Shown here: positions 23,088-63,787 of the stretch, piece by piece
How the letters are laid out: each line of letters opens with the position of its first letter
How positions within the stretch are numbered: the stretch's first letter is position 1
Sequence record: OR896834.1
Reading direction: 5' to 3' (one strand)
DNA from: Escherichia phage Baret
DNA: 64,000 nt
Position numbers and translations under genes: made by a program
The notes under the pieces: model-generated
Seen by the model: only the letters and a program-made list of their open reading frames with translations
Told to the model about the DNA's origin: nothing
The model's database searches: none

Positions 23088-24839
23088 ATGGTAACTAAAA
23101 CAGTAATTCCTACGGATATTACAAAACTTAAAAATGAGTCACTTAATAAAAATAATAACCTGAGTGACTTAGCAGACCGTGCAGCAGCATGGCTAAATGT
23201 ACGTCCTATTGGATCTACTCCCCTTGCGGGAGACCCCGTTAATGATTATGATGCTGTAACTAAGCGTTGGGTAGAAAATAAGATTAATACTGGCACAGTA
23301 GGACCCACAATGAATGGTGTCATGAACTATGGTGTAGGTGATTTTCACCTTCGCGATAGCCGTGCGTATATTCAACCTTATGAGGTAGTTTCTGATGGGC
23401 AGCTTCTTAACAGGGCTGACTGGCCGGAGCTTTGGGCTTACGCTCAAATGGTGGGGGCTATAGAGGATTCTGAATGGCTGGCTGATAAATTTCAGCGCGG
23501 CAAATACTCTAAAGGGAATGGAACAACAACCTTTCGTGTTCCAGATAAGAATGGTGTACAAGATGGGTCAATACGCGCTCTTTATGGCCGCGGAGATGGT
23601 GGGAATAGCAATGCAAATGGGCAACTGTTCGAATCCGCTGCGCCTAATATCTATGGGCGTATTGCTAGTTATTCTGGCTCGTCATATGCTCAGGTATTCA
23701 GCGATATCAATCAAGGTGCATTTAGAACAAGTAATGATCTATACCCTGCTGCGGCAGGTGATGCAATCCCGATGACGGGTGCAATTTCAATATCTGGGCG
23801 CTACAACACCCTTGAGATTGATGCGTCACGCTCAAGCCCGATCTACGGGGCATCAAATGACGAAATCCTTACACGAAACTTTGTCGGCGTCTGGGTGATT
23901 CGTGCATCTGGTGGATTTGTTGCTGCGAAGACATCATGGAGTGTGATAAACGCTGATGCTGTTAAACCTTCTGCTAGTACTACTGTTTATGGCGGAAGTG
24001 TACTATCTGAATATAAAGTAGGTACTAGCAGTGAAGCTATAAGTACATTACGTGCTAAAGCTACTATTGATGGCAACTACTCTACTGAGCTACTAATAGA
24101 TAATAAATCTACTGGTAAATCGAGTTCCGCCCAGCTTGTAGATACTGGGAATTTTGTAGCGGATCGTTTTGAAGCTAATCTAGTAACTGGTATGGCGTGG
24201 TCTCAGACGGGCTGGGTACAAGGTACTTTTTCTCAGAGCGAAGCGAATATAGGCAGTACATTTAATTTTAATAGTATTTTGAGTGGTTCCCAGTATTCTA
24301 CTGCGGGGTATAAAACATCTGCACATTTTGGATTAATTCATAATGACTTGGGTTCCTTTGCTGATTCTTGCTGGCATGTATCAGGAGATGCGGATAACAA
24401 ATTTGGTGTACGTTTAAAAATTCAACCAAACAATAATAGTATTTATTTCTATTCTTGGTGGCCAGGTGCTTCAGCAACCTATACTTTGCAATTAAATGCT
24501 GTATCTGATTCTCGCTTAAAGCATGATATTAAGGCTATAGACGCAACTAAGTCCATCGAGGTATTAAAAGGATTAGAATTCCAATCCTTTGTATATAATA
24601 ACGATGAAAAATCTCGTGTCCGACGTGGGGTTATTGCTCAGCAAGTAGAGACTATAGAACCACTTTATGTAAAAACTAGAAAATTTTATAATGATGACGG
24701 AATAGAGCAGGAGCAAAAGGAATTAGATACAACTCCAATGCTTCTTGACACTATGCATGTTGTGCAAGATCTTATTAAACGGATTGAAGATCTAGAGAAA
24801 GAGCTTGAGCAATTAAAGGTACAATTAGTATCACAATAA
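23088..24839 (+). CDS. L-shaped tail fibre protein B with tail-collar-type domain and C-terminal intramolecular chaperone (peptidase S74-like) domain
   Basis: 583 aa; N-terminal DAVTKRWVENK and ADWPELWAY motifs; C-terminal NAVSDSRLKHDIKAID...RRGVIAQQVE typical of self-cleaving tail-fibre chaperone domains. Confidence 0.75.
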   Translation: MVTKTVIPTDITKLKNESLNKNNNLSDLADRAAAWLNVRPIGSTPLAGDPVNDYDAVTKRWVENKINTGTVGPTMNGVMNYGVGDFHLRDSRAYIQPYEVVSDGQLLNRADWPELWAYAQMVGAIEDSEWLADKFQRGKYSKGNGTTTFRVPDKNGVQDGSIRALYGRGDGGNSNANGQLFESAAPNIYGRIASYSGSSYAQVFSDINQGAFRTSNDLYPAAAGDAIPMTGAISISGRYNTLEIDASRSSPIYGASNDEILTRNFVGVWVIRASGGFVAAKTSWSVINADAVKPSASTTVYGGSVLSEYKVGTSSEAISTLRAKATIDGNYSTELLIDNKSTGKSSSAQLVDTGNFVADRFEANLVTGMAWSQTGWVQGTFSQSEANIGSTFNFNSILSGSQYSTAGYKTSAHFGLIHNDLGSFADSCWHVSGDADNKFGVRLKIQPNNNSIYFYSWWPGASATYTLQLNAVSDSRLKHDIKAIDATKSIEVLKGLEFQSFVYNNDEKSRVRRGVIAQQVETIEPLYVKTRKFYNDDGIEQEQKELDTTPMLLDTMHVVQDLIKRIEDLEKELEQLKVQLVSQ

Positions 24840-24840
24840 A

Positions 24841-24885
24841 AGAAAACCCCAGTGGACAAAATCCACTGGGGTTTATTATTTATTT
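24841..24885. terminator. bidirectional rho-independent terminator at convergence of late (+) and early (-) transcription
   Basis: 10-bp perfect stem CCCCAGTGGA/TCCACTGGGG, A-run upstream and T-run downstream. Confidence 0.8.
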
Positions 24886-24895
24886 TATATGTAGA

Positions 24896-44020: not shown

Positions 44021-46793
44021 TTCTAGCACCTAGCTCTGCCATTGCTTCATCATGCATATGTTTCTCCTCATCAGGCATAAACTTATAAGGAATTGGCATA
44101 CACTCGATTTTACAATAGGTTCTGTACCAGTCTACAATATTTTCAGTGTTCATATCCTTACCAATACCCATCATACCAAGATACATTCTAGCATATTTTG
44201 GGTTAGCACTCTGACCTGTTTTAAGGAAGAAGTCCTTCTTCTTACCTTTCAGAGCTTCTATGAATGGTTTGATAGTGACGTTTGAACACTTCTTAATATC
44301 TTCCCAAAACATCTCGTGCATTTTATGGAAGAATGCCGCTCGATCATTAGGTTTATCCTTGATATATTGTTCAACATGCTCAACTGTTACATCTTTAATA
44401 GACTCAAGATGATAATAGCGAACAAGAAGTAGTTTAGCTTCATACGCATCCGCATGACGTGGAGCACAATAATCAGGAGTTGAATGTAGAATAGCTTTGA
44501 TTCGCTCTTCCATATATTCTTTCCCTGCACCTTCAATAGTTCCCCAGCTTTCGCTGAAAATATCAATAGTTGCACCCTGATCAAGCAAGTAATAACGTAA
44601 AGTACTAGTATAATTTCTAGATTCCAGCTCTCTACGACGTGCATATAATTGCTGTGCTAACTCCAGCCAGCCCTCATCAATATTATATTGTTCAGAACCT
44701 GCAGAGAATCCACTCGTAGATTTATCAATAAAATAATAGATATTCTGAGCACCACGGTCGCGCCTGATTGCTTGAAAACGCATGTTTGGCGCTTGGTTAC
44801 TGGTTCTAGTAATAACGAATACGTTATCAAAATAGTTGAAGTCAACCCCACTCGTTACGGATGGACTACATAATAAGCAATCAATTTGTTGATCAATCAG
44901 CTCATTAGTTGTGTAATCCAGAATACGTCTAATATCCACATCAGACGTAGAATTTGAGTGGATTTCCTTAACTAACGCACCCGTATTACGACGTAATGCC
45001 ATACCCTTCTCATTCAGCTCATCAGGGGCACAATCAGATACCAGAATAGATTTCTCACCCATCTCTAGAGAAGTCTGAAGTGCAACCCAAATACTGGATT
45101 CATCAGGAAACTCATAAGCATGAGCTTTTGACAGCATTTTACGGTGATGATTATAAAATGCAACCGGTTTATCAAACTCGATCAAAGAACCATATGCTTC
45201 AATTGTTTCTGCACTAATATCACCATCTGATAATATAATGATTTTTGCAGTTGCAAGAATATCCCGAAGAACCTGAATACATTCACGACGTTGTTTAACA
45301 ACCGGGGCGAATAGTAGGTCATTCATTACTGCATCACATTCATCTATAAAGATTGCATCAATTTGACCAATAAAACTCTTGAACTTATGCAAAGAGTGAA
45401 TAGTTGTGGACATACGGTCAATAGCACCACGCTTAAAATTAAGCATATCTACAGACTTATCATATTGTCCTGCACTAAATTTCTTAGCATTGGAAGATAC
45501 CAGTGCTCGAGTATTGGTAATTGCTAAGAAATTACCTTTAATAACTCTTGAATCTAACCAACGCACAACCGCTGTAGTTTTACCTGTACCTAGACTCGCT
45601 TTTACAAAAGTCATATAACCTTCTGGTGGCACAGTATTTAATTTCAAGAAGTTATCAGTCTCTAAAGAGTTAGTTTCTAGCTTTTTGAGTGGAATACCTT
45701 TTAAAACATCCGGTATATCACGTTTAGAATTATTAACAAATGCTTTTAGAGCCTGTTTACGACCATTATTAAAGTAGTCTTGAATATTACGACTATTATC
45801 TTTAGTTGCAATATATTCTGATAAGGCTGGACGGATTTCTTTTTCTAGCCATGCAAAATCAACACCATCCTCTAAAGCCCTGTGATAGAGTTTAGGAATA
45901 ATACGTAGATACACTCCATCCTCAGCTTCTTCTAGTTCGCTGATGGTTTCTTCTACTTTATCAGAGGCAGCTTTTTTACCCTTAATTTGGTCGAGTAAAG
46001 AGTAGAACTCTTCTTTAAACTCACCTCTAGTTGTTTCATAGTCAACCAGATTATTGGGTAAATTTACTTTAGAACCCTTAACAAATACCAGACGTGAAGC
46101 ACCCTCCGCTTTAAACGGATCTACTATACCATCGGTAAATAACGGATCTGCAAAATAATGGAGCTGTACGGAAGAGTAATAAGCTAAGTCGGCAATATCA
46201 AAGCCATACTTTTGTCTACTACTTTCGTTGATAGATGTAAATAAGAATTTGATTTGACCCTGAGTTACTTTAACATTAGATTCTAGTATTAAGTGCATTC
46301 GGATACCTGGTTTTAGCCCAGCCGAAGATGATGCATGAGCGATAAACCCTGCATCAAGAGGAAACATATCCTCACTAATACTATTTAACATTCTAATAAT
46401 ATGTCGAGCCATGCCAACAAGATCAAACTTGTTACAACCACCTGTATCTACAATACCATCCACGTCCATTGCAATTATATGACTTGGGTTAGATACATTA
46501 AAGTTGCCCTTCTTACGTCGCACATTATTTTTAGGTGCAAGACATCGACCTCGTACCGCAACGATATGAGGGTCAGACGTTAAACGTCTCATAAGAGGAA
46601 GCATTTCTACTAGGGTTTGAGGATCAACTTCGTCAATTACATCAAACTTGAAGGGCATTGAAGCTGGTTTACCTTCAGGATGCTTTGAGGAAAATCTTTT
46701 AGCAAAAAGATAATCTTCTGCTTTAACTTCTCGCCAATTGCCTGTGGCTAAATCGCGATGAAATCCTGCATGACCTTGTAGGATTGAAAACAC
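44004..46793 (-). CDS. large P-loop NTPase, putative replication-initiation/origin-binding helicase (start uncertain)
   Basis: Walker A SLGTGKTT and Walker B IFIDECD; ORF-track start 46871 is TTG; GTG 46793 has AGGAG RBS 7 nt upstream. Confidence 0.55.
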   Translation of the reverse strand: MFSILQGHAGFHRDLATGNWREVKAEDYLFAKRFSSKHPEGKPASMPFKFDVIDEVDPQTLVEMLPLMRRLTSDPHIVAVRGRCLAPKNNVRRKKGNFNVSNPSHIIAMDVDGIVDTGGCNKFDLVGMARHIIRMLNSISEDMFPLDAGFIAHASSSAGLKPGIRMHLILESNVKVTQGQIKFLFTSINESSRQKYGFDIADLAYYSSVQLHYFADPLFTDGIVDPFKAEGASRLVFVKGSKVNLPNNLVDYETTRGEFKEEFYSLLDQIKGKKAASDKVEETISELEEAEDGVYLRIIPKLYHRALEDGVDFAWLEKEIRPALSEYIATKDNSRNIQDYFNNGRKQALKAFVNNSKRDIPDVLKGIPLKKLETNSLETDNFLKLNTVPPEGYMTFVKASLGTGKTTAVVRWLDSRVIKGNFLAITNTRALVSSNAKKFSAGQYDKSVDMLNFKRGAIDRMSTTIHSLHKFKSFIGQIDAIFIDECDAVMNDLLFAPVVKQRRECIQVLRDILATAKIIILSDGDISAETIEAYGSLIEFDKPVAFYNHHRKMLSKAHAYEFPDESSIWVALQTSLEMGEKSILVSDCAPDELNEKGMALRRNTGALVKEIHSNSTSDVDIRRILDYTTNELIDQQIDCLLCSPSVTSGVDFNYFDNVFVITRTSNQAPNMRFQAIRRDRGAQNIYYFIDKSTSGFSAGSEQYNIDEGWLELAQQLYARRRELESRNYTSTLRYYLLDQGATIDIFSESWGTIEGAGKEYMEERIKAILHSTPDYCAPRHADAYEAKLLLVRYYHLESIKDVTVEHVEQYIKDKPNDRAAFFHKMHEMFWEDIKKCSNVTIKPFIEALKGKKKDFFLKTGQSANPKYARMYLGMMGIGKDMNTENIVDWYRTYCKIECMPIPYKFMPDEEKHMHDEAMAELGARNDSEE

Positions 46794-49093: not shown

Positions 49094-49908
49094 ATTTGTT
49101 TCCCCGGCACATAAGGTCTACCCTCTAAATGGGCTTCTACACGAGCGATAAAATCAGGGTCATTGAAAGCATCTACCGCACCTTTACTCCAGTAAGAGAT
49201 ACCACGTTCTTCCAGCTGGTACATCTCACTACGAGTCATACCTTGATAGCCAGGTTCCGCTGCGAGGGCACTATCATAGTAGTTAACAACCATAAGTTTC
49301 GCAGCAGTCAAATTAAGAACAGGAAATAATTCCCAGTAGAAGTTAATTACTTGGTTAGAGCAACCAACCACAATGATCATATCTTGACTGGTAATACCAT
49401 CAAAAATATTGTACATTTCTGCATACGCTGGAGCATGCTCCCCAAAGAAGATTACATTAGGTTTAACCCATTTATAATCATCTGGATCAATAGAAGTGTA
49501 CCCTACATCAATAATCCGTTTATTGCTACTATTGTAGCTATCAGCTACAACAACCTCTTTTAAATATCCGTGAATGTGCAGAATGTCACTATGTGGAACG
49601 CCAGCACGCTCAATAAGGTCATCAACGTTGGTAGTCAAGTTTACTACCTGACCTGGATATTGTTTATACCATTCACCAATACGCAAATGTGCAAGATTGG
49701 GTTCAACAGTTTTTAGCTCTTCACGACGTTTGTTGTAAAACATATGGGTTTTATGGTAAAAATTACCACGAAAGGCATGAATATTACATACTTCTTCTAG
49801 ATCATAATCATCCCACAGTGCTTTACCACTAGCAGTATCAGTACGAAAAGCTCGTACACCACTTTCAACACTCAAACCCGCACCGCTAATAATAATTAAT
49901 CTACGCAT
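49084..49908 (-). CDS. Sir2-like (sirtuin-fold) protein lacking the zinc-ribbon module
   Basis: GAGLSVESGVRAFR (cf. sirtuin GAGIS..SGIP.FR), HG motif, FFGE motif, VVGCSNQV (cf. GTSL.V); no Cys4 cluster; ATG 49908 with AGGTGG RBS (ORF-track start is TTG). Confidence 0.55.
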   Translation of the reverse strand: MRRLIIISGAGLSVESGVRAFRTDTASGKALWDDYDLEEVCNIHAFRGNFYHKTHMFYNKRREELKTVEPNLAHLRIGEWYKQYPGQVVNLTTNVDDLIERAGVPHSDILHIHGYLKEVVVADSYNSSNKRIIDVGYTSIDPDDYKWVKPNVIFFGEHAPAYAEMYNIFDGITSQDMIIVVGCSNQVINFYWELFPVLNLTAAKLMVVNYYDSALAAEPGYQGMTRSEMYQLEERGISYWSKGAVDAFNDPDFIARVEAHLEGRPYVPGKQICP

Positions 49909-59105: not shown

Positions 59106-59134
59106 TTGCTTACTGAGTGAAATTTAGATATAAT
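59106..59134 (+). promoter_or_regulatory. sigma70-type early promoter (TTGCTT-17-TATAAT)
   Basis: -35 59106-59111, -10 59129-59134. Confidence 0.7.
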
Positions 59135-59413: not shown

Positions 59414-59682
59414 TGTCTATTCTTTTATCTGCTTTAGAAGCAAAACAAAATACTATTGCTGTTATTAAACAGGAAGTACTTAATCTAGAGTCACTTATTG
59501 CCGTAGAGATTGATAAAGCAATCAAAGAAAAAGAATTTAACTGCCATATTCAGGGATTAACTGAATATTCAGAAAACGCCAGAAACAGCGTTATGCAACG
59601 ACTCACTAAACTAGGCTACGTCGTAGAAGCTAAGTATGAGCAGCGTGAAGGTTTTTGGCTTGAAATTGACTGGAGCAAATAA
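59413..59682 (+). CDS. hypothetical protein
   Basis: 89 aa; start overlaps upstream stop. Confidence 0.45.
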   Translation: MSILLSALEAKQNTIAVIKQEVLNLESLIAVEIDKAIKEKEFNCHIQGLTEYSENARNSVMQRLTKLGYVVEAKYEQREGFWLEIDWSK

Positions 59683-60158
59683 TGTCGGTTTTCCACATTT
59701 ACACAGATGGTGCTTGTAAGTCTAACCCAGGTCCAGGTGCTTGGGGATTTATTGTCTATGATGATAACGATGATCGTTTAGGTTCTAAATCTGGATATAG
59801 TCCTAAAACTACAAATAATGAGATGGAACTCACGGCTATTGTAGAGGCTCTACGTTGGTCAGTTAAAAAAGATAATAGACCAATTGTTATCTATACTGAT
59901 TCTGCTTATTGCAAAAATGGTATGGAAAGTTGGATGTTTTCTTGGCAAAGGAAAGGCTGGAAGAAAGCAGATGGTGAAGTTCCTCTTAATCTAGAACTTT
60001 GGCAGGAAGCATTTAAATTAACACAGCAGTATATCAACTTTCATAATACTAACCCTACCTTTATTAAGGTTAAAGGACATTCTGGTATTAGTGGTAATGA
60101 AGCTGTAGACGCCTTATGTAACACAGTTATTACTGAAGCTGAAATGGCTGAGATGTGA
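59682..60158 (+). CDS. rnhA: ribonuclease H (RNase HI type)
   Basis: N-terminal YTDGACKSNPGPGAWGFIV and TNNEMEL, YTDSAY motifs. Confidence 0.85.
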   Translation: MSVFHIYTDGACKSNPGPGAWGFIVYDDNDDRLGSKSGYSPKTTNNEMELTAIVEALRWSVKKDNRPIVIYTDSAYCKNGMESWMFSWQRKGWKKADGEVPLNLELWQEAFKLTQQYINFHNTNPTFIKVKGHSGISGNEAVDALCNTVITEAEMAEM

Positions 60159-60179: not shown

Positions 60180-60208
60180 TTGCTTAAAGCCCTCTAATTT
60201 AGTATAAT
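60180..60208 (+). promoter_or_regulatory. sigma70-type early promoter (TTGCTT-17-TATAAT)
   Basis: -35 60180-60185, -10 60203-60208. Confidence 0.7.
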
Positions 60209-60235
60209 ATTCGTATTGAAAGTGAGGAGGGCTTT

Positions 60236-60514
60236 ATGAGAATTTATAACTCAAATTCATTAGGATTTAAACCGTTGAGAAAACGTGCACAATCACCTCG
60301 TCAAATAAGAAAGGCTAATATTGGTGAGCCAGAAACACGTCTTCCACCTCCTCCGGAACAACGTTTAGTTTATCTGGATGAAGAATTAGCTGAACGCGAA
60401 AGAAAAGCTCAAGAAGAGATTGAGCGTAAGAAAATGTGTACTGCTCCAGCATATAATAAAGGAGCGTATCAATATGTTTCCGATGCAGAACAAGCCAAGA
60501 TGGTTGGTAGATAA
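60236..60514 (+). CDS. hypothetical protein
   Basis: 92 aa; GAGGAGGG RBS. Confidence 0.45.
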   Translation: MRIYNSNSLGFKPLRKRAQSPRQIRKANIGEPETRLPPPPEQRLVYLDEELAERERKAQEEIERKKMCTAPAYNKGAYQYVSDAEQAKMVGR

Positions 60515-63345: not shown

Positions 63346-63728
63346 TAATTTAAAAGCTAGTAAATCGGTAGACGAAAGCCCAAGCATCTTACCTCGCAGC
63401 AGCGGTTGAAATACGAGGTTAAATAAGACCGCTGACCATACTATAAAGTATAATCTATTGGAGATTATGTTTATTACACCAGCCTTTTAAGCTGACACGT
63501 AAGAACAAAGCGTCGTTGATATTACCGACACAACTTCAAAGATCAACATTTAAGTATGAAAGCTGAAAAGTTTAAAGAACTCAAACTTCTAAACTTCTAA
63601 AGCTAAAAGATGCAAAGTATTCGTTGATGATTCAAACCCTAGATCAAAGGTACATGGCTCATAAGATATGGCCTGTGGCGCCTCTAGGCTGTTTATCGGT
63701 TTACTAGTTTCACAATTTAAAAATGTAT

Positions 63729-63757
63729 TTGCTAATCCACTAAATTATATGTATAAT
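63729..63757 (+). promoter_or_regulatory. sigma70-type early promoter (TTGCTA-17-TATAAT)
   Basis: -35 63729-63734, -10 63752-63757. Confidence 0.7.
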
Positions 63758-63787
63758 ATATTTTTAAATTGATGAAACGAGGCTATT

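Follow-up and report, generated by a model that had tools for sequence, protein, structure and literature searches.

In IS10, a segment present on read-through transcripts pairs with the ribosome-binding site and is absent from the transcripts that start at the element's own promoter. The resulting fold-back is cited as the means by which IS10/Tn10 is protected from external promoters, translation of the transposase being blocked on read-through transcripts (Davis, Simons and Kleckner 1985, as cited in PMC13181058). In phage T4, the genes e (lysozyme), soc, 49, and I-TevI are carried on long early and middle transcripts that sequester the Shine-Dalgarno sequence (SD) and/or AUG, and the transcripts from a promoter lying inside the structure are translated; for e, the effect of sequestration is 100-fold (PMC3014915). 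The promoter-early stem-loop (PeSL) cassettes of T4-type phages combine a sigma-70 early promoter, a stem-loop between or overlapping the -35 and -10 elements, and a downstream SD and ATG, and they have been shown to terminate transcription (PMC2839356, PMC4122927). A non-exhaustive literature search turned up no account of elements of this kind in T5-like phages. The locus described here suggests one: its mechanism would be that already known from T4 and IS10, and the T5-like example would be new.

The window, i.e., the whole 64,000-nt stretch of Escherichia phage Baret that was analyzed (OR896834.1), carries the RNase H gene rnh and, after a gap of 77 nt, a homolog of T5.090 (Table 1). This gap contains both a promoter and an inverted repeat. 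Sequence searches with the region recovered >440 T5-like (Demerecviridae) genomes, and 939 bp of it are 100% identical to Escherichia phage vB_Eco_mar004NP2. Pattern scans identified the local promoter as a T5-type TTGCTT-N17-TATAAT element with a 17-nt spacer (the T5-type consensus being TTGCTw-N17-18-TATAATA; PMC3326045). An AT-rich tract, AAATTAAAAAATTTTC, lies before its -35 hexamer, an SD and ATG come after the promoter, and the homologous site carries a predicted-promoter annotation in both T5 (AY543070) and AKFV33. The next promoter downstream of it is the classical P-H207. With transcription starting where the position of the -10 hexamer places it, the local transcript is predicted to have a 21-nt leader. 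The nearest T5-type promoter upstream is the likely source of read-through transcripts across rnh. A terminator scan predicted no canonical terminator between that promoter and position 60180, its sole match in this interval being a weak terminator-like site within the rnh coding sequence (59726-59745); read-through across rnh is therefore plausible.

Table 1. Features of the rnh-T5.090 locus, in window coordinates
Feature	Position	Strand	Basis
Nearest upstream T5-type promoter, TTGCTTACTGAGTGAAATTTAGATATAAT	59106-59134	+	Pattern scan
RNase H gene rnh, T5.091 homolog	59682-60158	+	ORF list; annotation of relatives
-35 hexamer, TTGCTT (T5 consensus TTGCTw)	60180-60185	+	Sequence, pattern scan
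5' arm, TAAAGCCCTCT, anti-SD-like, inside the 17-nt promoter spacer	60185-60195	+	Repeat search, folding
Weak upper helix, UUUAGUAU / GUAUUGAA, 3 G.U pairs	60198-60220	+	Minimum-free-energy and centroid folds
-10 hexamer, TATAAT	60203-60208	+	Sequence, pattern scan
Predicted transcription start, 7th nt after -10	60215	+	Inferred from -10 position
3' arm, GGAGGGCTTTA	60226-60236	+	Repeat search, folding
T5.090 homolog, 92-aa protein, phrog_4593, proposed regulated gene	60236-60514	+	ORF list, homology

A repeat search recovered a perfect 10-nt inverted repeat, TAAAGCCCTC (60185-60194) and GAGGGCTTTA (60227-60236), with 32 nt between the arms; in RNA, U60195 and G60226 can add a G.U pair, for a stem of 11 bp. 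The first-pass annotation had already proposed an inverted repeat with one arm in the promoter spacer and the other at the ribosome-binding site. The repeat proved to be real, and only its placement needed shifting by 1 to 2 nt, with AAGCCCTCT lying at 60187-60195 rather than 60186-60194 and GAGGAGGGCTT at 60224-60234 rather than 60222-60232. The GGAGG core of the SD (GAGGAGG, 60224-60230), the SD-ATG spacer, and the A of the T5.090 homolog ATG all fall within the 3' arm. The 5' arm lies at least 8 nt upstream of the -10 element, so that a transcript starting at about 60215 lacks it. In read-through RNA, the stem is recovered in both the minimum-free-energy and centroid folds (z = -2.0), and the upper helix comprises 8 bp (60198-60205 with 60213-60220) around a 7-nt loop and contains the -10 element and the predicted start site. 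Between the rnh stop codon and the 5' arm there are 26 nt, so that a ribosome terminating on rnh should, judging from ribosome footprint size, not melt the hairpin.

We compared the two transcript forms by their opening cost, i.e., the ensemble free-energy cost of rendering the region from the SD to the AUG single-stranded. This cost is 5.4 to 6.3 kcal/mol for a transcript from the predicted start and 14.8 to 17.6 kcal/mol for read-through transcripts starting 60 to 300 nt further upstream, and it returns to 6.3 kcal/mol when the 5' arm of the read-through form is swapped in silico for its complement. The first-pass annotation had suggested such a folding comparison, and the resulting difference of about 10 kcal/mol, which is gone once the 5' arm is flipped, supports both of its predictions in silico, namely, that read-through RNA with both arms could sequester the ribosome-binding site and that transcripts from the local promoter, for want of the 5' arm, would escape sequestration. 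The predicted read-through penalty at T5.090 is +11.3 kcal/mol. Across the 14 remaining promoter-gene pairs of the window, it averages 1.8 kcal/mol (standard deviation, 2.2), which places T5.090 >4 standard deviations above them; the next highest value is 6.1 kcal/mol.

We propose that transcripts from an upstream early promoter (e.g., that at 59106) that run through rnh would carry both arms and form a hairpin whose lower stem has 11 bp and whose weak upper stem has 8 bp, with the -10 element and start site in its apical part. This hairpin would hide the T5.090 SD and the first base of its AUG, leaving ribosomes unable to start. Transcripts from the gene's own promoter would begin between the arms, carry no 5' arm, and present an open leader with a strong SD, such that the T5.090 homolog would be translated essentially only off its own promoter. 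The firing of this promoter at about 60215, the read-through from upstream, and the lowered translation of the read-through transcripts are the steps that we infer; a full-text literature search found no transcript-end or expression data for T5-like phages and no T5 transcript maps. The hairpin may additionally pause or attenuate the read-through RNA polymerase in a PeSL-like manner.

The arrangement is most readily compared with the T4 genes mentioned above, in which the helix includes the SD and/or AUG, as does the 3' arm here, and the 5' strand lies at or upstream of the proximal promoter, whose transcripts therefore lack it and are translated. The leader structure is likewise kept while its sequence changes in related phages. 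The T4 proximal promoter differs in being late (gp55-dependent), which makes the T4 structure a temporal switch, whereas the upstream and local promoters of the window both match one T5 early consensus, TTGCTw-N17-TATAAT. A temporal switch, with the local promoter belonging to a later class than the upstream one, is accordingly ruled out here, both promoters being of the sigma-70 early T5 type, and this shared class is the reason for reading the element as one of insulation. A further difference is that the T4 effect has been measured, while that in the window is predicted from folding. With IS10, the locus would share insulation from outside transcription as opposed to timing, although T5.090 is not known as a mobile element or transposase. 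The likeness to PeSL cassettes lies in a strong early promoter of the sigma-70 kind, with AT-rich sequence before it and an SD and ATG after it; in arms that bracket the -10, which PeSL stem-loops often overlap; in the proposed isolation of the downstream gene from upstream transcription; and in an indel-rich location, indels flanking T5.090 in relatives. The orthologous elements of Erwinia phage KEY and Stenotrophomonas phage Yut2 (see below) come close to PeSLs in layout, with compact 11- to 12-bp stems and 11-nt loops holding the -10. However, PeSL stem-loops are compact and exclude the SD, whereas the window stem is split around the -10 and +1 positions and has the SD as its 3' arm; PeSLs form a repeated family in each genome, whereas significant complementarity is found at 2 of the 19 window promoters; and PeSLs have been described only in T4-like myoviruses.

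Repeat length alone is unremarkable. When perfect inverted repeats ≥10 bp long with a 3- to 45-nt loop are counted, the window has 11, against 3.25 ± 1.5 in Markov-1 simulations, so that about a third of such repeats are expected by chance. What makes this repeat special is its position and energy. When the -35 element plus spacer was paired with the first 40 transcribed nucleotides at each of the 19 strict T5-type promoters in the window, the T5.090 promoter ranked first with a duplex energy of -19.0 kcal/mol, followed by one of -10.7 kcal/mol and a median of about -5 kcal/mol. Similarly, when a complement was sought in the 60 nt upstream of each of the 73 candidate ribosome sites (SD plus start codon) in the window, the T5.090 site was the strongest of all (mean, -8.5; standard deviation, 3.1). 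Permuting only the 17 spacer bases, and so retaining their C-richness, gave -19.0 kcal/mol in 0.24% of the trials (P = 0.002); the same test yielded near-uniform P values on the other window promoters and is thus calibrated. In Erwinia phage KEY, complementarity beyond that of shuffled spacers is seen at 4 of 29 promoters. We rejected spacer-leader complementarity as a general property of T5 promoters, 17 of the 19 in the window having none beyond shuffles.

The second window promoter with significant spacer-leader complementarity (31232-31150, minus strand; shuffle P = 0.002; -10.7 kcal/mol) has a spacer, TTCTCTCGAA, that pairs with the leader TTCGAGGAGAA; about 30 nt separate its SD-like GAGGAG from the next ATG, whose ORF has 6 codons. 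In KEY (L066), three promoters besides that of T5.090 have strong spacer-leader complementarity (49783-49850; minus strand, 14155; plus strand, 39889). The one at 49783 closely resembles the window element: its arms, AAAAGCCTCCG / CGGAGGCTTTT, cover the SD of key_111 and are followed by TATTATG. The depositors annotated it as a terminator, though a full promoter lies inside it.

The close relatives, which comprise Tequintavirus, Epseptimavirus, and phiR2-01, share 96% identity in the block of promoter and leader. A column-wise covariation test on the T5-like clade was null, the shuffles equaling the observed value, with the 17 distinct sequences, at 96% identity, being too alike to discriminate; the pairs of Serratia phage Kamaji are one column out of register and are scored as broken by such a count. 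In relatives, the changes C60191T, C60192T, and A60228G keep pairing as G.U; T60193C, T60193A, C60194A, and a rearrangement in SHSML-45 cost one to three inner pairs and leave 8 to 9 bp. The single changes at 60193/60194 are uncompensated in the relatives L012, L015/L100, L029, and L109, and so the inner stem is only weakly constrained. In the upper helix, G60213A turns a U.G into a U-A pair in three lineages, and A60197T provides an extra pair in Kamaji and L038. Read-through raises the predicted ribosome-site opening cost in phiR2-01 by 8 to 9 kcal/mol. A pattern scan of IMG/VR found no additional variants of the promoter block; a metagenome scan found four more promoter variants (L090, L100, L101, and L109), its remaining matches being unrelated ones to a 19-nt core.

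The deeper relatives are more informative with regard to the first-pass annotation's caveat that the pairing may be coincidental, which is countered by divergent orthologous loci that keep spacer-leader complementarity with different sequences. In Kamaji, both arms are changed (AAACCTCC / GGAGGTTT), the SD is covered, and read-through RNA is predicted to form a nearly uninterrupted hairpin of 20 bp that runs into UUUUAUG. In KEY and Pantoea phage AAS21 (CCTAACTTTCTG / CAGAAAGTTAGG), the -10 element forms an 11-nt loop, and the 12-bp main stem stops 4 nt short of the SD; the KEY hairpin has no U-tract, with AAAAGGAG coming next. The stem of Providencia phages PR1 and PSTCR5 (TCTCAAAT / ATTTGAGA) stops 2 nt short of the SD. 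In Yut2 and its relatives (GGCTGGAACCC / GGGTTCCAGCC), the -10 lies in an 11-nt loop, and GTTTTGTG comes after the hairpin; the Yut2 element, whose 11-bp stem is GC-rich, is terminator-like. The corresponding spacer-shuffle P values are 0.0016 (Kamaji), 0.0006 (KEY), 0.018 (PR1), and ≤0.0002 (Yut2), and, on swapping across lineages, the best partner of every spacer was its own leader (5/5 lineages). We conclude that the complementarity across the -10 at T5.090 is under selection, because repeats of different sequence outperform shuffled spacers and the best match of each is the leader of its own lineage. The predicted consequences for the ribosome site vary: read-through raises the opening cost by 5 to 10 kcal/mol in Kamaji and 5 to 6 kcal/mol in PR1; the rise of 3 kcal/mol in KEY is within the background, and in Yut2, where the hairpin does not cover the ribosome site, the difference is -3 kcal/mol. 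What the lineages would share, then, is a structure present only on transcripts from upstream, with the means varying by lineage. In Klebsiella phage Sugarland and in Pectobacterium phages My1 and DU_PP_V, the T5.090 homolog abuts or overlaps the upstream ORF and there is neither promoter nor repeat; being promoterless, these loci are no test of the hairpin idea.

Taken together, the thermodynamic, statistical, and comparative evidence supports a promoter-dependent translational switch, and the promoter-embedded hairpin is real and probably functional. We favor, with a probability of roughly 0.55, an element that acts as a promoter-embedded insulator against read-through, mainly by a translational block. 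For the window element, sequestration of the ribosome site is the best-supported mechanism, with attenuation of read-through transcription being secondary or alternative; attenuation stays a live alternative or added role because the KEY and Yut2 hairpins barely or never cover the ribosome site. A broader reading is more tentative, and we would not bet on it: T5.090 may have been uncoupled from upstream transcription in at least five lineages, including the non-Demerecviridae Stenotrophomonas phages, by nonhomologous hairpins that enclose the -10 and act by hiding the ribosome-binding site (T5-like phages, Kamaji) or by termination (Yut2), and, more generally, the spacer anti-SD at a minority of T5-type promoters (2/19 in the window, 4/29 in KEY) may constitute a PeSL-like design not described beyond T4-like myoviruses. 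The recurrence of spacer anti-SD sequences hints at such a design in Demerecviridae.

The same observations can be read in other ways. The element could be a composite promoter-terminator, i.e., a PeSL-like attenuator whose hairpin stops or attenuates polymerases arriving from the rnh operon and whose embedded promoter restarts transcription, with the overlap of the SD being incidental. A T4-type PeSL stem-loop cut downstream lacZ as much as rrnB T1 did (PMC2839356), the Yut2 ortholog looks like a canonical terminator, the near-continuous Kamaji hairpin runs into its UUUUAUG, the KEY sister element at 49783 bears the depositors' terminator annotation, and the T5.090 neighborhood is indel-rich like PeSL regions. 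We nevertheless hold this account to be unlikely for the window, where 32 nt separate the arms, the upper helix is a weak one, and the post-stem tail, UUUAUGAG, contains just 4 U among 8 nt and is under coding constraint. This hairpin was not called in the terminator scan, T5 and AKFV33 have no terminator annotation there (AKFV33 despite a TransTerm screen), and the KEY hairpin at T5.090 lacks any U-tract. A canonical intrinsic terminator in particular was rejected, given a loop of 32 nt (one of 7 nt would require the weak upper helix to form), this tail, and the absence of a scan call; the stem composition would itself be acceptable for one (5/10 pairs are G-C). Slightly less probable in our view is that a C-rich spacer and a purine-rich SD happen to be complementary by chance, the pairing having no function and persisting with a promoter block that is conserved as a whole. 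About 3 of the 11 perfect window repeats of at least 10 bp are expected randomly, the outer pairs come from the promoter consensus, TTGCTTAAA, and the SD/AUG context, which are conserved anyway, and the relatives show both uncompensated inner-stem changes and a null within-clade covariation test. Chance would, however, have to account for the calibrated shuffle P value in the window together with the independent ones of 0.0016, 0.0006, and ≤0.0002 at orthologs with unrelated arms, for cognate spacer-leader pairs being best in every lineage, and for an opening-cost difference that far exceeds those of the other promoter-gene pairs.

The early-gene junctions of phage T7 are RNase III cleavage sites of the R1.1 type, and the lower stem, internal loop, and upper stem of the window hairpin resemble such sites. 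An RNA processing or stability element, in which the interrupted hairpin (about 20 bp) of read-through RNA would serve either as an RNase III-type site or to protect the 3' end of rnh mRNA, would also sit well with the 20-bp Kamaji hairpin and with the changes in relatives that are compatible with the upper helix. This helix has 3 G.U pairs in 8 and overlaps promoter elements that are conserved anyway, though, and the KEY, PR1, and Yut2 stems have just 8 to 12 bp. Nothing here links T5 mRNA to RNase III, and there is no Rfam family match, a search of Rfam 15 having returned only sub-threshold, hairpin-shaped matches (MIR473, on both strands, scoring 19.6 to 21.6 bits where the family gathering score is 52); we regard this explanation as improbable. 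Least credible of all is a DNA operator with half-sites flanking the -10, bound by a dimeric repressor that might be T5.090 itself. An inverted repeat does bracket the -10 in all lineages, with center-to-center spacings of 22 to 23, 29, and 41 to 42 bp that are near whole helical turns. Yet the arms are unrelated between lineages whose T5.090 proteins are 46 to 70% identical, no other copies of the arm occur in the window, G.U-compatible variants are tolerated, and comparison with PHROG, Pfam, and PDB revealed no recognizable DNA-binding domain in T5.090. A dispersed operator or repeated motif was likewise rejected: AAAGCCCTC with ≤1 mismatch has 12 matches in the window against 13.4 expected, and its exact copies are the two arms only.

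Should the favored reading, that of a read-through insulator acting mainly on translation, be correct, T5-like phages too would insulate single genes from read-through by promoter-embedded RNA structures, a trick so far documented for T4 late genes, for IS10, and, in the form of terminators, for T4-type PeSL cassettes. The T5.090 protein, uncharacterized yet widely conserved, would then be one whose dose matters. The early promoters of T5 are classic tools of molecular biology, and the element would be a warning for the reuse of T5 promoter fragments with their native leaders; it would also call for caution in deducing the expression of T5 early proteins from RNA-seq coverage alone. Even so, it would open no new field.

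The PHROG of the T5.090 homolog is one of unknown function, no relative was found in PDB, and the single match in Pfam, to NADase_NGA, is below threshold (E = 0.03). The family reaches past Demerecviridae into jumbo-sized and 160-kb phages of Stenotrophomonas and Pseudomonas, namely, the Stenotrophomonas Menderavirus phages (L010, L048, L061, and L063) and Pseudomonas phage Lu11 (L064), and its members have a conserved C-terminal motif, ...ERKK.C.AP.Y.KG.YQY.... In the Stenotrophomonas phages, the homolog is again found downstream of nucleotide-metabolism genes (nrdB, thioredoxin). In Sugarland (L009), a homolog (892-1176; ATG at 892) that is 58% identical by tblastn is unannotated; the record has two overlapping hypothetical coding sequences there in other frames (744-905 and 905-1255).

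The neighborhood of T5.090 is an indel hot spot, in which the promoter-hairpin block is kept in each case seen. Salmonella phage KKP_3831 (L003, 694-1206) has a 513-nt ORF inserted between rnh and the T5.090 promoter, and the feature at this position in the related phage gmork is annotated as a homing endonuclease. In slur09-type phages (L002, slur09, 1135-1584), a gene for a ybiA-like N-glycosidase is inserted directly 3' of T5.090. KEY and Kamaji have one or two additional small ORFs near T5.090, and the loci concerned include L005 and L008.

Other repeats in the window deserve mention in their own right. An AT-only 17-nt inverted repeat that is 94% complementary (CAATTTAAAAATGTATT / AATATATTTTTAAATTG; 63713-63771) brackets the whole promoter at 63729-63757, whose gene has the second-highest predicted read-through penalty (+6.1 kcal/mol); this repeat may be no more than a product of the AT-rich, self-complementary flanks that T5 promoters typically have. 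At 45478-45533, a 12-nt inverted repeat with perfect arms (AATTTCTTAGCA / TGCTAAGAAATT) and a 32-nt gap has TGCTAA-like -35 motifs in both arms. Finally, a long GC-cored hairpin at 24829-24889 (AAACCCCAGTGGA / TCCACTGGGGTTT), with a 5-nt loop and with A- and T-runs on either side, has the look of a bidirectional intrinsic terminator, the strongest that the window contains.
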